From NCBI RefSeq assembly GCF_009931435.1, contig NZ_CP043414.1: a stretch of 64,000 nucleotides of DNA; one strand, given 5' to 3'. Source of the stretch: Escherichia coli. GTDB taxonomy: Bacteria > Pseudomonadota > Gammaproteobacteria > Enterobacterales > Enterobacteriaceae. The translations under genes were made by a program, and so were the position numbers. Numbering within the stretch: the first letter of the stretch is position 1; each line of letters opens with the position of its first letter. This document shows, one piece after another, positions 1 to 12,005 of the stretch. Below the pieces are notes generated by a model. It made no database searches. It saw only the letters and a program-made list of their open reading frames with translations, and was not told the DNA's origin.

Positions 1-2887
1 CAGAAGGCTGTACCCACCAGTTCACCGGTAATTCACTCACACTGTGTTTTGCACTGTCACGCAGGGGGGCACGGGATGAGGTGCCTTCGCCAAAGGTCAT
101 ATCGTTGTGGCTGCCCAGACGGAAACCGGCACGCACATGTTGTGCACTGCCATGCCCGAACTTCACATAACCGGCGTTGTCCTTACCGTCATCCAGGGAA
201 AGTCCCTGCCAGGTATACTGCAGTTGTGGCTCCAGCATCAGGTTGTCAGTGATACTGAAGGGCAGACCGGTTTCCAGTGAGCCCAGCCAGCCCCAGCCCC
301 GGGCGCGGAAGTCGTTATTGTCCGATGACGCTTTCATGCTGTGGCGGGTTCCCTGTGCCACAATGTCAGCCCACAGGCCGGAGGACGTGTGTGTCAGATT
401 CAGGTATCCGCCCAGGCTGCCGGCATCATCCCGGACCGTGCCGGCACGGGAGCCGTCATCATCCTTAACATCAACGGAAGAATGGCCAGCAGCACCATAT
501 ACCCCCGCGGTCACAGACATACCGGCAACCTCTGTTCTCATCAGGTCACCCTCCAGACGGACGAATCCATAGCTGCCGCTGCTTTCCGGCGTGGCCCCAC
601 GGGCAATACCGCCATTGTTATCGTGACCGAGATGACCGCCCTGAATGCTGAGACGGACGCTGTTGTTTTCACCATTTACACCGGTCTGATGGCTGCGGGA
701 GCCTGCCACAATCCGGTCATAGTCCATTGCCTGTGTCAGCATGGAGGCATACAGGGGGACTTCTGCACGATAAGCATTTTCACTGCGCAGATACCAGCTC
801 TCACCACTGTCCCGGTTGAGGGAGTAGTTAAAGGCACCGGCCTGCAGCCTGTTCCCCTGGACAAAGGCCCCTTCCTCCGTGGTGGCACCGTTAATGGCTT
901 CCACCACCTGAATACCCTTACCGCTGGTCGCCAGCCCCGACGCACTGTTGCCGGCGTTCACCAGGTTCAGGATGGTTTTTCCGGTTGCCCTGCCGCCGTC
1001 AATGACCAGTCTGTCAGCATTGTTCTGTGCCATATCCGGGCGTACACGCAGGCTGATGGTGCCATTCTGTCCGTTCAGGTTTTTCACTTTCAGGGTTGCC
1101 GGTACGAACTTCCCTGTGCGGGTGGAGGTGAAATGAATCTGTCCGGCATGGCTGAGGTCATCCACCACCGACTGCACCGTGGCGTTATCGGGGATATTCC
1201 AGGTGGCACCGGAGGCGAGAGTGACATTCGTGGGGTCAATGGCACCGTTCAGCACAGTGCTGCCGGTCAGCTTCAGGGCTGTACCGCGCTGAGCAATGAC
1301 ATCCGTGGTGACGGTACTGTCGTTCAGCGTCAGCGTGCCTTCATTCAGGTTGACGGCTTTCTGGGTGAGTGTGGTGTTGCTGACAGTGAGTGTGCCACTT
1401 CCTGATTTTTCCACGCTGCCGTTACCGGTGAGAGAGCCTCCCTGCAGGAGTGCATCGCCTTCACGGATGGTCAGGGTATCGTTGTTCACCGTCTTCCCGG
1501 AAAGGGTAAGTATGGCGCCGTTATTCAGCGTGGTGGTGCCCGCCAGTGTGCCGCCCCTGGCGGTGAACAGTCCGCCATTTACCGTGGTATCCGTGGCCGT
1601 ATCACCGGCGTTCAGCGTGAATGAACTGCCTTTTTCCAGCATCAGGGCATCCGCCTGACCGCCTCCGATACTGAATGCCTTTCCGTCGCTCCGGGTACCA
1701 CTGACAGCGGCACCGGAATCGGCCAGCAGTACACCGCCATTTCCCATGGATACGGTGGTGGCGGTACCACCGTTGCGGACATCCAGCGTTCCGCCATCAT
1801 CCACGCGGGTATTAGTGGCTGTGTGTCCGGTCAGCACATCCAGGCGTCCGCCATTTTCCAGTACGACATTATCAGCTTTACCCTCCACAACCGAGAATGC
1901 TCCAAGGCGGTTTATGCCGGTAACGGTTGCAGCCGTACTGGTAACCAGTGCGCCGCCCTGCTTCAGGGTGACATTCGTGGCTGTACCACCGGCGTCCACC
2001 TGCAGTCTGCCCTTCTGATTAACGGTGGTATTCCCGGCCACACCCCCGTTTTTGACAATCTGCCAGCCGTCACTGTTCACAACAGTGTCAGACGCTGTAC
2101 CGCCGTTGTGCACATACTGGTATCCCCCATTCAGCGTGGTATCCAGTGCGTGACCATGTACAGTCTGGTCGCCGCCGGCATAAACCACAGTGGTATTTGC
2201 CGTTCCTTCAGTTCTCACAATCTGGCGACCGTTTTTATTGATGGTTGTGCGTACGGCATCCCCGCGAACAAACTGCCCGGTATCACCGTTTTCTGCATCC
2301 GGTCCCCCTTCCGCCCCGGTATTAACAACGGTATCCGTTGCCACTGTACCGGGCTTGACGACCTGCCAGCCCTTATCATTAATGACGGTTCCTGTGGCTA
2401 TCGCCCCCTCATGCATCCACTGTTCGCCACCATTCAGCGTGGTGTTCACTGCCCGTCCCTGAAGGCTCTGTCCGCCTCCGGCACTGATAACCGTGTCTGA
2501 GACACTTCCACCGGGGTTCACTCTCTGAAGACCACCACTGGTGACAGTCGTTTTGTTGGCTGTTCCGCCATCCTGTACCCATTGCCCGCCGGTATTGGCC
2601 TCGTTATCCGGCCCATACTCCAGCCCGGTACTGATGGTCATTCCGTTGGTCGTACCGAAGACAATCTGGTTGTCATGATTTTCCAGTGTTCCGCCGTTCA
2701 CGGTTTCACCTGCCTGTACAATACTGTCAGCAGCCAGGGCCGGGACTGACGTGACAGCAGCAAGAGACAGAGCAACCGCCACACCGGCGCCTTTTCCCCG
2801 TGAGCGGGCCAGTTCGGAGGCCACCACCAGGGTGCCCGTAATGTGATTCCATACCAGCCTGTAGCTGGTGTTCAGATGTCGTTTCAT
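1..2887 (-). CDS. flu: Antigen 43 (self-associating autotransporter adhesin), 3' end truncated by window edge (about 75 codons missing)
   Basis: Reverse complement from 2887 reads MKRHLNTSYRLVWNH... with long signal peptide and passenger repeats; reverse complement of window start reads ...RAPLRDSAKHSVSELPVNWWVQPS, matching the Ag43 translocator region; the long plus-strand ORFs here are antisense artefacts. Confidence 0.9.
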   Translation of the reverse strand, partial: MKRHLNTSYRLVWNHITGTLVVASELARSRGKGAGVAVALSLAAVTSVPALAADSIVQAGETVNGGTLENHDNQIVFGTTNGMTISTGLEYGPDNEANTGGQWVQDGGTANKTTVTSGGLQRVNPGGSVSDTVISAGGGQSLQGRAVNTTLNGGEQWMHEGAIATGTVINDKGWQVVKPGTVATDTVVNTGAEGGPDAENGDTGQFVRGDAVRTTINKNGRQIVRTEGTANTTVVYAGGDQTVHGHALDTTLNGGYQYVHNGGTASDTVVNSDGWQIVKNGGVAGNTTVNQKGRLQVDAGGTATNVTLKQGGALVTSTAATVTGINRLGAFSVVEGKADNVVLENGGRLDVLTGHTATNTRVDDGGTLDVRNGGTATTVSMGNGGVLLADSGAAVSGTRSDGKAFSIGGGQADALMLEKGSSFTLNAGDTATDTTVNGGLFTARGGTLAGTTTLNNGAILTLSGKTVNNDTLTIREGDALLQGGSLTGNGSVEKSGSGTLTVSNTTLTQKAVNLNEGTLTLNDSTVTTDVIAQRGTALKLTGSTVLNGAIDPTNVTLASGATWNIPDNATVQSVVDDLSHAGQIHFTSTRTGKFVPATLKVKNLNGQNGTISLRVRPDMAQNNADRLVIDGGRATGKTILNLVNAGNSASGLATSGKGIQVVEAINGATTEEGAFVQGNRLQAGAFNYSLNRDSGESWYLRSENAYRAEVPLYASMLTQAMDYDRIVAGSRSHQTGVNGENNSVRLSIQGGHLGHDNNGGIARGATPESSGSYGFVRLEGDLMRTEVAGMSVTAGVYGAAGHSSVDVKDDDGSRAGTVRDDAGSLGGYLNLTHTSSGLWADIVAQGTRHSMKASSDNNDFRARGWGWLGSLETGLPFSITDNLMLEPQLQYTWQGLSLDDGKDNAGYVKFGHGSAQHVRAGFRLGSHNDMTFGEGTSSRAPLRDSAKHSVSELPVNWWVQPS

Positions 2888-3059
2888 CAGCTTTTCCTTA
2901 GATTGAGGGTGAATAAAAAAGCCGGTACCCACAAACGTGGATACCGGCAGGTAAAGGGTTACAGTGCCGGAGGTCCGGCTGTGGGAGTTTCTGAATTGTG
3001 GTTCTGTTGTTCCCTGAATGTCTTTCTGTACGTATCTGTGCATGTTACTGACAAAGGTT

Positions 3060-3120
3060 ATTATTAGCTTATCGATCGATATAAACGATCGATAAAATAG
3101 ATATCGATCGTTTTATTCTA
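3060..3120 (-). promoter_or_regulatory. flu (agn43) phase-variation control region with three clustered GATC (Dam) sites
   Basis: GATC at 3074-3077, 3087-3090 and 3106-3109 within an AT-rich tract about 190-220 nt upstream of the flu start; matches the known Dam/OxyR switch architecture. Confidence 0.7.
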
Positions 3121-3214
3121 TTATTGAGCTATTGCACGGACAAGAGAGACAGTAACGAAAACAGTGCTTTTGTGAGCAGACTCAGAGTCAGGGAGGGCAT
3201 CAGTCACGACAGGT

Positions 3215-4087
3215 TCAGAAGAAAATCCAGTTCCATACCGCACGGGCAACAGAGACCACCGTGTCACGAACAGCGCGCAGGGCCGTACGGACAACAGAGG
3301 CAACACAGACGCTCTCCGCTGTGTCAAATATCCGGTCCACCGCACCGGTAAACTGTTCACGGGCCTGAGAGCGGACAGATTCCGTGCGCAGCTCGTCCTG
3401 CAGTCGGGTCATCAGGGGACTGGCGGCATGGTCGGGAAGCGCTGTCATGAGCGCACTGACCAGCGTATCCAGTTCCCAGCCGGTGCGGGCCGATACGGCC
3501 ACAACCGGATGTACGGGCCGGAACAGACGGAATACCGCCTCCGTTTTTTCGCGAATATTCTGTGCCTGTGCAGGAGAAGGCTGAATACCGGCCATATCCC
3601 ATTCATGGCAGGGCTCCGTTTTGTCGGCCTGCGTCACCACAAACAGTACCCGCTGATGTCCCCGGTGCAGGATGTGTCGCCAGAAATACTCATCCACAGA
3701 CAGGGCACGGTCATCGGCTTTAATCAGCCACAGTACCAGGTCAAGTTCAGGCAGAATGTCACGGTACAGGGCCTCATACTCTGCATCCCTGTCCCGGCTC
3801 TCGCCCACCCCGGGCAGGTCAGTGATAACCATGCTGTGACCGTGGCCACTCAGACGGAAGCGCCGTACTTCCCGGGTGCCGGCGTGAACATCACTGACCG
3901 GGGTGACCTCCCCCTGAAACAGTGCATTACAGAGTGAGGATTTACCGGCCCCGCTTTTACCCATAATGCCAATCACGGGTTCGTGACGGGTGAGTTTGCG
4001 CAGATGTTCCAGGATGTGACGGGAAAGCGAGTAAGGCAGGGAGGAGAGCGGTTTTTCAATTGCCTCAATGGCATCAGACGGATTCAT
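3215..4087 (-). CDS. yeeP: YeeP/YfjP-family prophage GTPase (50S ribosome-binding GTPase-like), apparently full length
   Basis: Translation from internal ATG at 4087 (MNPSDAIEAIEKPL...) with P-loop GIMGKSGAGKSS and DLPG motif; ORF-track start at 4126 is probably an N-terminal over-extension. Confidence 0.8.
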   Translation of the reverse strand: MNPSDAIEAIEKPLSSLPYSLSRHILEHLRKLTRHEPVIGIMGKSGAGKSSLCNALFQGEVTPVSDVHAGTREVRRFRLSGHGHSMVITDLPGVGESRDRDAEYEALYRDILPELDLVLWLIKADDRALSVDEYFWRHILHRGHQRVLFVVTQADKTEPCHEWDMAGIQPSPAQAQNIREKTEAVFRLFRPVHPVVAVSARTGWELDTLVSALMTALPDHAASPLMTRLQDELRTESVRSQAREQFTGAVDRIFDTAESVCVASVVRTALRAVRDTVVSVARAVWNWIFF

Positions 4088-5315
4088 ACATGTATTCCCG
4101 GTGAAAAAAGACAAAACCCCGCGCACCGGAAAGGTGGCGGGGGATTCACGGAGATAATATCTGTCTGAAATTGTTTTTAATCGATGGGATTGTTGCGTAT
4201 TAACATGAAGGAGATCAGGACTTATCCGTTACTGGGTGATCTCCTTCCATGAAAATACGCCGTTATTGTTAAACAGCAGGCTGATTTCTCCGTAAAGGGG
4301 AAAATATTTATCGGCTGCATGATTATCAGGTGTGTCTGTGTTTACTGCTGTGAGTATTTTTCAGTGTATTGTGGGGGAGATGTCAGTGGGAGATATTAAA
4401 TTTACATTTATAATTATCTTACTTCTTCTGTGTGTTTTTTATAAGAGTGCACACGTAATGATATCTGTTGATACCATGTGGTTAAGTGTTTCCCTTCCTG
4501 GTCATGCGTAATGATTAAATGCTTTTGTGACACCATTCTTCCGGTCTGAATATTTATCCCGTTCTTTTTTATTTGTGCAGTGATACTGTCGGAAGAGAAT
4601 TCAGTAATGTGAGGTGTCCTGGTCAGGATAATATCTGCTGAGATATTATTAGTTGAGTGTGTTTTTACTGAGCAAAAGCTGGCTTTTAATTCCTGTACTG
4701 AAACGCTGTTGCTCGTCCGGGGTTAACTGAAACTGGATGATGATGTAAAATGAAGGCTGTTTTTGTGTTTGTCGAAGAAGTGTTATTTTAATCCATTCTC
4801 ATCATTGGCTGGCGATTATACAGAAGTATTTGAAGAAAAAATGGTGCATTTTATCTGCGTCAGCAGGGAGGAAGTATTTTATTGATGTATCAGTATTAAA
4901 TGGTTTTTGTTATTTAGAAATATGTCATCCTGTCCATAGAATATTGTACTCAGCATTCAGTGCAGGAACTGTAGTCTTCTTTATTTTATTCTTCTTCAGG
5001 AGGGGGGATTCCTGAAGGCGTTATTCCCGGTGTTCTGTTTATGATTCATCCCGGCAGGAAACCGGTATCTGCAATACCCGGGATGATGCTTTTTGTTCGT
5101 ACGTGGTTGTGTAAAATTTGAATAGTGGATGTGCTCTGAAGGGAAGGAGGGGACACACAGATTCATTTTGTCTTTCTTCAGCAGCAAAACACACTGTGGT
5201 TATTATTTAACCATTAAATCAACAAAAATTTTTACCTCATATTGATTTGACTGCTATTTTTGCTATTAATAGCCAGAATTGCAGTACTTTTATATCTGTG
5301 TGTAGTGAGGTTACT

Positions 5316-7121: not shown

Positions 7122-7730
7122 TCAGGTGCGCTTATCGTCAACCGTTGTGCGGTATGCCAGGAGCACGTACTGATCCATCAGATCCGTCAGTGCTGCGCTC
7201 TGCTTCTGACGGTTGATGATCCATTCCTCCAGCTCTTTTTCTGATTTCCGTTTCAGATTCTCCGTCCAGTCGTCAAGGCAGTTTCCGGTCATTAAATCAA
7301 GCCAGCAAAGCCAGACCAGTTTGAGGCGCAACTCCGTGCCACCAAACTGACGGAAGAGGCTGATCAGTTTATTTGCCAGCGAACGCTGCCTCAGACGTTC
7401 ACATTCAGACAGGAGAATGCCTTCCAGCATCGGATGATGAACCAGCAGATGTTCACTGGTGCATAAATTCACTATCAGATCATCATCCAGGGGCGGCGTG
7501 GTCCGTTTGTCCGGACCATAAATCAGCCGGTGCAGACTCTGGGGTACGATGGCAATCTCCGGTTTTTCACCATTGAATGACACCCACCCGGGCGTCAGAT
7601 TATGGAAGTAGTAGATATTCGGATGACACACGCCCCAGGATACGGCGTGCCGGGTGAAGCCGGTCAGCCATTTCTGGTAGCTTTCGTGGAGCAGCTCGTA
7701 ACGGGTCTGATACTGTGGTTTCATTTTCAT
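7122..7730 (-). CDS. Hypothetical protein (202 aa) downstream of alpA on the same strand
   Basis: ORF 7122..7871; internal ATG at 7730 (MKMKPQYQ...) has a GAGGAA Shine-Dalgarno 6 nt upstream; no family recognised. Confidence 0.5.
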   Translation of the reverse strand: MKMKPQYQTRYELLHESYQKWLTGFTRHAVSWGVCHPNIYYFHNLTPGWVSFNGEKPEIAIVPQSLHRLIYGPDKRTTPPLDDDLIVNLCTSEHLLVHHPMLEGILLSECERLRQRSLANKLISLFRQFGGTELRLKLVWLCWLDLMTGNCLDDWTENLKRKSEKELEEWIINRQKQSAALTDLMDQYVLLAYRTTVDDKRT

Positions 7731-8579: not shown

Positions 8580-9329
8580 CGACCTGGTGAGTGACAGTCT
8601 GAGAGACCGGTTAAGTGGTGGTACGGGAGTAATGAGTTTGGGGTGGGTACCAGAATGCCAGTCTGGCGGTATGCTGACAGTATCACGTTAATTGCAGCAT
8701 AAAGTGATGAGAGGCTAATGGAAGTTAAAACCAGAGCAGTTCCGTCGTTGTTCATCCCGGGAGACGCTGGAAAAAGTGATTTCCCACACGCGTTATAAGC
8801 TTACTCCAGCGGAGATGGAAGCCTTCAACTCTGCGGTCGATCACCGACTGGCAGAACTGACAATGAACAAGCTTTACGATCGTGTTCCCGCTTCAGTCTG
8901 GAAATATGTCATCTGAGCGTTCGGTAATCACAACTGCATCGCGCCAGGTGTTATCCGCTTTGTGATTCTTATTGGCTCTTCTCAGGTTATTAAAAGCTGA
9001 ATATGTTCCTGTTGTCGGGAACCAGGATAATACCGGGAGCGTTAAGCGGTATAGCGACAACAAAGAATTCGAAATCAAAAGGGAATGGTGCCGGAGGCGT
9101 GGGCGGTAATAGGCTGATTTTCAGGTATTACCGGCTTACAACGTGTGGTTGATATTGAGGGGCTGTGAGTTTCGCGTATTTGTCAGAAACCCAGATGAGT
9201 TTTCCTGTATGGGACGAAATAAGGCAGCGGCAATACCTGGAAAATTTAATATGGTATGAAGGAGAACCTGTCGGTTACGCTTAATATACACGGTACACTG
9301 TCAGCTCAGGGGATACATGAACCGTTATC

Positions 9330-9539
9330 TCACCAGCTACACAGTATACACACACTGACGCTGACAGTAGTCAGCAGGACCACAATAATCAGCGCCAGCA
9401 GTATGGTAACGATACGGTCTGTATTCCGGTAGTAGCCGAAGGGGTCGACAGAACCACAATACGGGCAACACACTGTATTATTAGTAATCGCGTTTCCACA
9501 GTCCCTGCACTTCTTTTGCGTATCACCATAACTCCCTCC
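9330..9539 (-). pseudogene. Small zinc-ribbon plus transmembrane-helix protein, apparently frameshifted
   Basis: ATG at 9529 with strong GAGGAGGGAG Shine-Dalgarno opens a 46-codon frame; the -1 frame encodes CRDCGNAITNNTVCCPYCGS followed by a hydrophobic helix (IVTILLALIIVVLLTTVSVSV) but lacks a start codon. Confidence 0.4.
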
Positions 9540-9727
9540 TCACAGCCTTACCCGTAACCGGTTTTTTACATTAAAAAACAACGCTGAAAATTCAACCGTC
9601 AGTCCGGAGACGACCGTTCGGGTTATCACAGAGTGCCTGAGACAGTGTCCTGCCGGAGGTCACTTCAGGGACTCTGCGCATTTTTTACGACGTGGCTATT
9701 CCGTATGAACCATACGGAGATTTAACC

Positions 9728-10297
9728 ATGACCTACAAATACAACCCCTTCTGGCAGCAACGTATTCGTGAGACGGTGCGGCACGCACTGAATGTTCATC
9801 CCCGCCTGACGGCATTGCGGGTTGACCTGCGTCTCCCGGATGTACCGGCAGCAACGGACGCAGCTGTGATATCCCGCTTCATCAATGCCCTGAAAGCCCG
9901 AATCGACGCTTACCAGAAACGTAAGCATCGGGAAGGTAAACGCGTGCATCCCACCACCCTGCATTACGTCTGGGCCCGGGAGTTTGGGGAGTTCAAAGGT
10001 AAAAAACACTATCACCTGATGCTGCTGGTCAACCGGGATACCTGGTGTCGTGCCGGTGATTACCGCGCTCCGGAGTCTCTGGCCGGGATGATTAAACAGG
10101 CGTGGTGCAGTGCCCTGGGAGTGGATGTCGGGTGCCATGCCACGCTGGTGCATTTTCCGGCCTGGCCGGCGGTGTGGCTGGCGCGTAATGATGACACCGG
10201 CTTTCAGCAGGTGCTGGAACGTGCTAACTATCTGGCGAAGGAGCATACCAAAGCTCACTGCACCGGTGAGCGCAACTTTGGCTGCAGTCGTGGCTGA
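9728..10297 (+). CDS. HUH-type rolling-circle Rep-like protein (YagK/YfjJ / inovirus gp2-like family)
   Basis: HUH motif KKHYHLML and YxxK motif (NYLAKE) near the C-terminus; ATG 9728 with GGAG Shine-Dalgarno embedded in an 8 bp palindrome (9700-9718). Confidence 0.65.
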   Translation: MTYKYNPFWQQRIRETVRHALNVHPRLTALRVDLRLPDVPAATDAAVISRFINALKARIDAYQKRKHREGKRVHPTTLHYVWAREFGEFKGKKHYHLMLLVNRDTWCRAGDYRAPESLAGMIKQAWCSALGVDVGCHATLVHFPAWPAVWLARNDDTGFQQVLERANYLAKEHTKAHCTGERNFGCSRG

Positions 10298-10462
10298 GCC
10301 AGACAGACGAGTTATCTGACTTCAGTGTGATGACGTGTTCACGGCCACCACACTGATTTTCCCTTATGAGACTGAACTGAAACCGCCATTCACACCTGAC
10401 CACGCTGCCCGTACCGGGACGGCTGTTGCCTGCGTGTCGTCTGACGGTAAGGAACATATACT

Positions 10463-10855
10463 ATGTACGCAAAATCCTTTCTCGCTCTTGATGGCAACGG
10501 ACGTCTGACGGGCGCCCGTACAGCACAGGCCGCACCTTATGCTCACTACACCTGCCACTTGTGTGGCAGTGCACTCAGATACCATCCGCAATACGACACT
10601 GAACTTCCCTGGTTTGAACACACTGACGACAGGCTGACAGAGCACGGTCAACAGTGCCCTTATGTCAGGCCGGAGCGCAGAGAAATACAGTTGATTAAAC
10701 GTCTGCAGCAATTCGTACCGGATGCCTTACCCGTGGTGCGTAAAGCCAGCTGGCACTGCAGACAATGTCACCACGATTATTATGGGGAGCGGTACTGCAC
10801 ACACTGCCAGACCGGAGGTTTCAGTCTTCCCCGGACAGCTCAGCAACTGTCTTGA
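10463..10855 (+). CDS. Uncharacterised zinc-ribbon protein (paralog 1), CxxC pairs and PWFEH motif
   Basis: 130 aa; CHLC ... PWFEH ... CRQC-x10-CTHC; AAGGAA Shine-Dalgarno upstream; paralogous to 12019..12423. Confidence 0.6.
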   Translation: MYAKSFLALDGNGRLTGARTAQAAPYAHYTCHLCGSALRYHPQYDTELPWFEHTDDRLTEHGQQCPYVRPERREIQLIKRLQQFVPDALPVVRKASWHCRQCHHDYYGERYCTHCQTGGFSLPRTAQQLS

Positions 10856-10864
10856 ACGTAAAAA

Positions 10865-11833
<969 letters not shown>

Positions 11834-12005
11834 GATTACCCATCCTTGCAAATGCGTTATGGCGTACTGACAACTGTTCGGGTTTCAGATGAGTGGCTCA
11901 GTGTATGCGCCATTCGCTGAGCTACGGGCTATGAACCCCTTGAGGGATCGGGCTGCATACACCTTGCCAAATCTAATCACAGTTATTTTAACCAATTGTC
12001 AAGAT
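11834..12005 (-). ncRNA. Candidate IS110-family bridge-RNA region (structured 5' non-coding arm); hypothesis only
   Basis: 8 bp stem (11901-11908 with 11955-11962) enclosing a smaller hairpin; TTGACA hexamer on the minus strand at 12002..11997; analogy to IS621-type elements. Confidence 0.25.

Follow-up and report, generated by a model that had tools for sequence, protein, structure and literature searches.

The flu (agn43) regulatory region of an Escherichia coli strain closely matches the Dam/OxyR phase-variation switch and IsrC leader of K-12

The left end of the window (i.e., the whole stretch of 64,000 nucleotides of Escherichia coli DNA that was analysed) is occupied by flu, or agn43, which encodes the autotransporter Ag43. 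The coding sequence lies on the minus strand (1..2887) as a stop-free open frame comprising the first 962 codons, starts with an ATG at 2887-2885 on the same strand, and has its last 233 nt past the left window edge. Over these 962 amino acids the protein shares 98.2% identity with K-12 Flu (i.e., 1.8% of residues differ), the gene shows 100% nucleotide identity to agn43 of strain 504239, and identical genomes annotate it as agn43; the gene placed under the switch discussed below is an autotransporter of the Ag43 family. A Shine-Dalgarno sequence (AAGGA; 2895..2899, minus strand) can be read from the sequence 7 nt 5' of the flu ATG, and the stretch TAAGGAAA together with the ATG is invariant or nearly so in ten E. 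coli alleles. The upstream boundary of the regulatory region is formed by a yeeP-type GTPase gene (3215..4087, minus strand), which matches the Pfam family MMR_HSR1 and is annotated as "GTPase family protein" in an identical genome, so that the interval 2888-3214 (327 bp) corresponds precisely to what separates the GTPase stop codon from the flu ATG. This GTPase gene is intact here (290 aa according to the annotation of an identical genome), whereas K-12 yeeP is a pseudogene beside IS2. Elsewhere the window contains four tRNA-Asn genes, serU, RseX, and DsrA, and cobUST lies beside the island in an identical genome. The neighbourhood is that of the cryptic prophage CP4-44 in K-12, in reverse orientation, and the locus is therefore the positional orthologue of K-12 flu.

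Of the 327 intergenic bases, 326 are shared with the yeeP-isrC-flu region of K-12 MG1655. The original prediction, made from the letters of the DNA, held that GATC sites at 3074, 3087, and 3106 are clustered in the AT-rich leader of flu, and proposed alignment to the K-12 agn43 regulatory region as a check. Both the positions and the low G+C content (29.7% across 3040-3130 versus 48.3% for the whole window) were confirmed, and the alignment contains one mismatch, with all three GATCs at the same positions in the two strains. The placement in the flu leader also stands, with the refinement that both the gene and the switch are on the minus strand. Counted along the leader, the promoter-proximal GATC (3106..3109) occupies +1..+4, the middle GATC (3087..3090) occupies +20..+23, and the distal GATC (3074..3077) occupies +33..+36. 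The spacing of 19/13 bp is that of K-12, and no GATC other than these three is found between window positions 1 and 4212. The sole intergenic difference from K-12 falls at 3105, immediately after the first GATC on the sense strand; this base is G here and A in K-12, changing the first site from CGATCA in K-12 to CGATCG. With G at this position all three GATCs are therefore centred in the same 6-bp palindrome.

A cluster of this kind could in principle be a chance feature of an AT-rich intergenic region with no regulatory role. For bare GATC sites this explanation is reasonable, as three of them inside 36 bp are expected about half the time per 64-kb window: the triple is the tightest in the window, yet about 55% of random placements of the 197 sites in 64 kb match it. 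Bare clustering (P about 0.55) was thus dropped as evidence, and the extended CGATCG motif was tested instead. All three sites read CGATCG, and the presence of 3 of the window's 15 CGATCG sites inside 36 bp has P = 3.7e-4; the longer 38-nt pattern CGATC-N14-CGATCGTT-NN-TATCGATCG has a single occurrence in the window and none in 100 shuffles. In addition, alleles that have diverged until their flanks can no longer be aligned all keep the triad unchanged, and the region is near-identical to the experimentally characterised region of K-12. A chance origin is effectively refuted by the K-12 alignment, the allele footprint, and the CGATCG statistics, and is left with almost no probability.

The region is widespread, being present in about 4,100-4,500 of 5,426 complete E. 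coli genomes, at a median of two places per genome and a maximum of seven. The footprint was drawn from ten aligned E. coli alleles, ranging from 100% identity down to cah and other loci of the Ag43/Cah family with non-aligning flanks. Across the ten alleles the invariant elements are the -35 region (TCTCTTG), the -10 region (TAGAATA), the CGATC cores, the terminator, and the Shine-Dalgarno sequence with the ATG, and nothing else. At the second and third GATCs the invariant sequence is CGATCGTT..TATCGATCG, and at the first it is CGATC. The spacing of the triad is kept in all ten E. coli alleles (19/13 bp in nine, 18/13 bp in one) and in all three Citrobacter loci that were found to carry it. 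Several E. coli alleles (L004, L005, and L007) retain an intact promoter, triad, and terminator although the cargo gene behind them is destroyed, the damage consisting either of a truncated ESPR/AIDA pseudogene or of an IS66 inserted right after the leader.

A promoter scan of positions 2700-3400 returned TTGTCC-17-TAGAAT as the only promoter-like site, corresponding to a sigma-70 promoter on the minus strand (3115..3143) with its -35 at 3143->3138 (TTGTCC), a 17-nt spacer, and its -10 at 3120->3115 (TAGAAT). The transcription start (+1) was set at 3109, the G of the first GATC, by carrying over the 5' end of K-12 isrC through the alignment; with this base as +1, the GATCs begin at +1, +20, and +33, the terminator spans +162..+195, and the ATG lies at +223. 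In the uropathogenic (UPEC) strain EC958, 5' RACE mapped the start of the operon to a position 228 bp 5' of the ATG (PMC4807369), which is the same base as 3109 in alleles with a 6-nt longer leader.

For OxyR, the 37-bp tetramer consensus ATAGnTnnnAnCTAT-N7-ATAGnTnnnAnCTAT, with 20 specified positions (PMC2909390), was scanned across the entire window on both strands. The maximum score of 14/20 is reached at only 3 sites in 64 kb, two of which are overlapping registers in this region. The best match (3075..3111, minus strand) extends from -2 to +35 and begins directly downstream of the sigma-70 promoter; the alternative register, 3089->3053, ties with it at 14/20. In the register 3111->3075 the three GATCs overlap ATAG/CTAT-type elements, the geometry that would be expected if adenine methylation disturbs OxyR binding. 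By consensus match and identity to the K-12 region, for which binding has been demonstrated, the triad is thus located within a predicted OxyR site that overlaps the transcription start. An alignment that put the triad outside the OxyR site would have spoken against the original prediction; the GATCs were instead found inside the top-scoring consensus match. The exact OxyR-DNA register is left unclaimed because cah-type alleles fit it poorly in their first half-site, which is much weaker in the register 3111->3075.

Since the single difference from K-12 directly flanks a Dam site, and flanking sequence is reported to affect Dam kinetics at other switches (PMC2909390), the switch could be locked or altered in this strain, either through the G at 3105 or through the strain background. 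This is very improbable given that G is the majority base (8 of the 10 alleles) and the A of K-12 the minority, that the OxyR-consensus score is 14/20 with either base, and that many other complete E. coli genomes carry a regulatory region with 100% identity to this one. A switch that operates as in K-12 is the reading retained here.

Downstream of the start site lies the IsrC (or IS102) RNA, which is the leader transcript of flu (2908..3111, minus strand). The original prediction expected IsrC in this interval and had been unable to verify it from the sequence; it is present at full length, matching the Rfam family IS102 (RF00124) with 253.5 bits, where the gathering score is 46 (E = 4.8e-50), in an untruncated match that covers model positions 1-206 of 206. 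It lies on the same strand as flu, in the interval that separates flu from yeeP, and ends at an intrinsic terminator. K-12 isrC (b4435, 2071317-2071511) maps to window positions 3109->2915, a length of 195 nt, and its 3' end coincides with the T-tract of the terminator (2915..2948, minus strand). This terminator was recovered by a terminator scan, RNA folding, and the Rfam structure, and consists of a 12-bp stem (2948->2921) followed by T6 (2920->2915); 9-10 alleles have the same stem, apart from a single U-G/U-A change. Its end is separated from the flu ATG by 27 nt. Because IsrC and flu have their promoter, start site, and strand in common and IsrC ends 27 nt before the ATG, these sequence features identify IsrC as the terminated leader of flu; the RNA is therefore in the predicted interval, but not as a separate gene. 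In published work IsrC is described as a flu leader subject to attenuation/antitermination (PMC5389530, PMC5811629), and in an RNA-seq study the levels of isrC and flu dropped in parallel (PMC13168525).

The leader RNA folds with a predicted energy of -63 kcal/mol (z = -4.2 versus shuffled controls) into a 5' hairpin built from the second and third CGAUCG palindromes and the terminator hairpin. No covariation signal was obtained for the two main leader helices, which are invariant in nine alleles (covariation term -0.58), and structural claims are limited to the terminator and the 5' hairpin. The consensus fold also pairs 3105-3108 (AUCG, from the first GATC) with 2885-2890 (UGAU, around the start codon), and 2897-2899 with 2911-2913 (CCU with the AGG of the Shine-Dalgarno sequence). 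All bases in both pairings are invariant, and in this model the pairings might affect the translation of read-through transcripts.

Alternatively, IsrC could act in trans as a small RNA and be more than a by-product of leader termination; the switch would then also govern how much of a regulator of other genes is made. In favour of this are its discrete nature, its strong structure (z = -4.2), its curation as an sRNA family, and the conservation of its middle section among Ag43-type alleles, and cyoD has been put forward as a target on the basis of IntaRNA and anticorrelated expression (PMC13168525). However, the cyoD target is a prediction, the published descriptions concern attenuation and antitermination, and the RNA uses the promoter, start site, and strand of flu and ends at the leader terminator. 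In cah-type alleles unrelated sequence stands in place of the leader's middle part, and only the triad and terminator persist, which argues for cis-acting elements and against a conserved seed region. A trans-acting role is consequently considered unlikely, and IsrC is treated here as the terminated leader of flu.

Comparison with known systems places the locus closest to its K-12 counterpart. K-12 agn43/flu has the same promoter, 19/13-bp triad, OxyR-consensus region, leader, terminator, ribosome-binding site, downstream gene, and neighbourhood, and differs in the base at 3105, the yeeP pseudogene beside IS2, and 1.8% of the Ag43 protein. The regulatory regions of cah, which encodes a calcium-binding Ag43 homologue, and of other Ag43/Cah-family genes in O157:H7 and other strains have the same -10, the same CGATC(G) triad with its spacing, and the same terminator and ribosome-binding site, whereas the interval between the first and second GATCs and the whole middle of the leader are unrelated and the first OxyR half-site is poor in the register 3111->3075. 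The Salmonella/P22 gtr and opvAB systems resemble the locus in having GATCs within OxyR half-sites and in the exclusion of OxyR by methylation, as described in PMC2909390 (see also PMC4856963). In those systems, however, four GATCs are arranged in two pairs over three or four OxyR half-sites that are occupied alternatively, and OxyR acts as both activator and repressor (PMC2909390), whereas the sequence here suggests one repressor site, with three GATCs over the start site in a contiguous OxyR-consensus region. An architecture of the gtr/opvAB type was rejected on these grounds (i.e., only three GATCs and one contiguous OxyR-consensus region). The pap switch, based on Dam and Lrp, is similar in that a surface adhesin is under the control of regulatory GATCs whose methylation pattern is heritable; it differs in that its two GATCs, spaced by 102 bp, lie in two sets of Lrp sites and PapI takes part. 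A pap-type switch was also rejected, given the spacing of 19/13 bp and the distance to the next GATCs (>1.1 kb upstream and >3 kb downstream). The allele of strain 09A19CPO009 (L006 1501-1845) contains a fourth leader GATC 102 bp downstream of the third, and its agreement with the pap spacing is probably a coincidence.

The DNA on either side of the triad is devoid of GATC (window positions 1-3073 and 3110-4212), a span of ~1.1 kb upstream through the GTPase gene and ~3.4 kb downstream through the whole autotransporter coding sequence. The flu coding sequence has no GATC in the 2887 nt present here and none in the 3120 nt of K-12, compared with expectations of 7-8 from a second-order Markov model and 8.2-8.5 from permutation of synonymous codons, in which zero was reached in 0 of 5000 permutations. 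By the same permutation, only one of the 256 tetramers is more depleted in flu than GATC (z about -3.8). Full autotransporter coding sequences from six alleles (82-100% nucleotide identity; loci L002 5100-9607, L001, and L015-L018) have 0 GATCs versus 5.9-8.7 expected, and the GTPase coding sequence has 0-1 versus about 3 expected. The depletion extends no more than 61 nt past the agn43 stop codon, to a point shortly ahead of the yeeR-like gene, which contains 20 GATCs versus 15.8 expected and thereby rules out a depletion that is island-wide.

It is possible, if rather doubtful, that these GATC-free flanks are a selected part of the switch, isolating the triad from neighbouring Dam targets. 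If so, the isolation could tune how fast Dam or SeqA arrives at the operator after replication and in this way set the heritability of the ON and OFF states. A second GATC-free stretch of 3.06 kb (8882-11945), in which about 8 GATCs would be expected, covers an IS110 transposase pseudogene, zinc-ribbon genes, a gene of the inovirus Gp2 family, and part of a gene of the Hha family. GATC-free stretches of at least 1 kb are a known general feature of mobile elements (PMC4659465). Taken together with that report, the occurrence of this second stretch among IS and inovirus remnants keeps a generic mobile-element explanation alive, and such an explanation is at least as likely as one specific to the switch.

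A scan for the triad pattern with one genome per species returned four loci only. In Citrobacter braakii (L012 5108-5145, minus strand) and C. amalonaticus (L014 941-978, plus strand), the same -10 and triad are found downstream of a yeeP-like GTPase gene, with the spacing of 19/13 bp and an OxyR-consensus score of 14/20. The triad is followed in both by an uncharacterised 154-aa open reading frame that is not Ag43 and whose hydrophobic N-terminus resembles a signal peptide by eye; neither an IsrC leader nor a terminator was found in these two modules. In C. werkmanii (L011), an agn43-like promoter and triad (7175-7212, minus strand) precede a small open reading frame with a hydrophobic N-terminal stretch (by eye). 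The Citrobacter reading frames behind the triad gave no match in Pfam, NCBIfam, or PADLOC, and the idea that they are IrmA-like was rejected for lack of any similarity to that protein. About 1.2 kb downstream on the same strand in C. werkmanii, PADLOC identifies a 2TM (SLATT) effector and a CBASS-type oligonucleotide cyclase (239 and 383 bits), the genes behind the triad lying within L011 4705-7130 (minus strand). No terminator is predicted before the cyclase gene, and the locus may represent a putative Dam/OxyR phase-variable CBASS-like defence locus. The fourth locus is a cah-type regulatory region on a 1560-nt contig (L013) of a metagenome-assembled genome (MAG) labelled 'Collinsella sp.'; mis-binning of an E. 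coli contig most likely accounts for its presence there.

Considered as a whole, the interval 2888-3214 is very probably the regulatory region of flu/agn43 at the K-12 CP4-44 position and would work as described for K-12, i.e., as a Dam/OxyR switch followed by a terminated leader. The original prediction of a Dam/OxyR phase-variation switch upstream of flu is supported by the near-identity to K-12, the OxyR consensus, the adjacent promoter, and the conservation among alleles, and nothing in the sequence contradicts it. The elements, their positions, the near-identity to K-12, and the conservation come from the sequence itself; OxyR binding, the effect of methylation, heritable switching, and attenuation are carried over from published work on K-12 and UPEC. 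The genes dam and oxyR lie outside the window and are presumably present in the genome, as would be assumed for the species E. coli.

In the proposed mechanism, the sigma-70 promoter would start transcription at or within one base of 3109, and all three GATCs would fall inside a single OxyR-tetramer site from approximately -2 to +35. In the OFF state the unmethylated GATCs would allow OxyR to bind, block RNA polymerase, and shield the sites from Dam; in the ON state methylation by Dam would exclude OxyR and the promoter would fire. Each state would be self-perpetuating, with switching taking place after replication as Dam and OxyR compete for hemimethylated DNA. The 222-nt leader would then be transcribed, most transcripts should end at the terminator to yield the 195-nt IsrC, and read-through would give the flu mRNA, probably as part of a flu-yeeR-irmA operon mRNA. 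For K-12 it has been reported that unmethylated GATCs bound by OxyR correspond to the OFF state and methylated GATCs to the ON state, and that the states are heritable and switch at a rate of ~1e-3 per generation (PMC3764049, PMC4872104, PMC13337833, PMC2909390). The switch is already known and near-identical to this textbook case, and the mechanism itself gains nothing new. Potentially new are the conserved absence of GATC around the triad and the reuse of promoter plus triad in Citrobacter, once upstream of a CBASS-like pair.

As far as can be read from its DNA, the flu locus of this strain comprises a complete Ag43 switch and IsrC leader, both intact. Ag43-dependent aggregation and biofilm formation, and probably the expression of yeeR-irmA, should therefore vary between cells and colonies, and SMRT or nanopore reads should show a mixture of methylated and unmethylated copies at the three GATCs.
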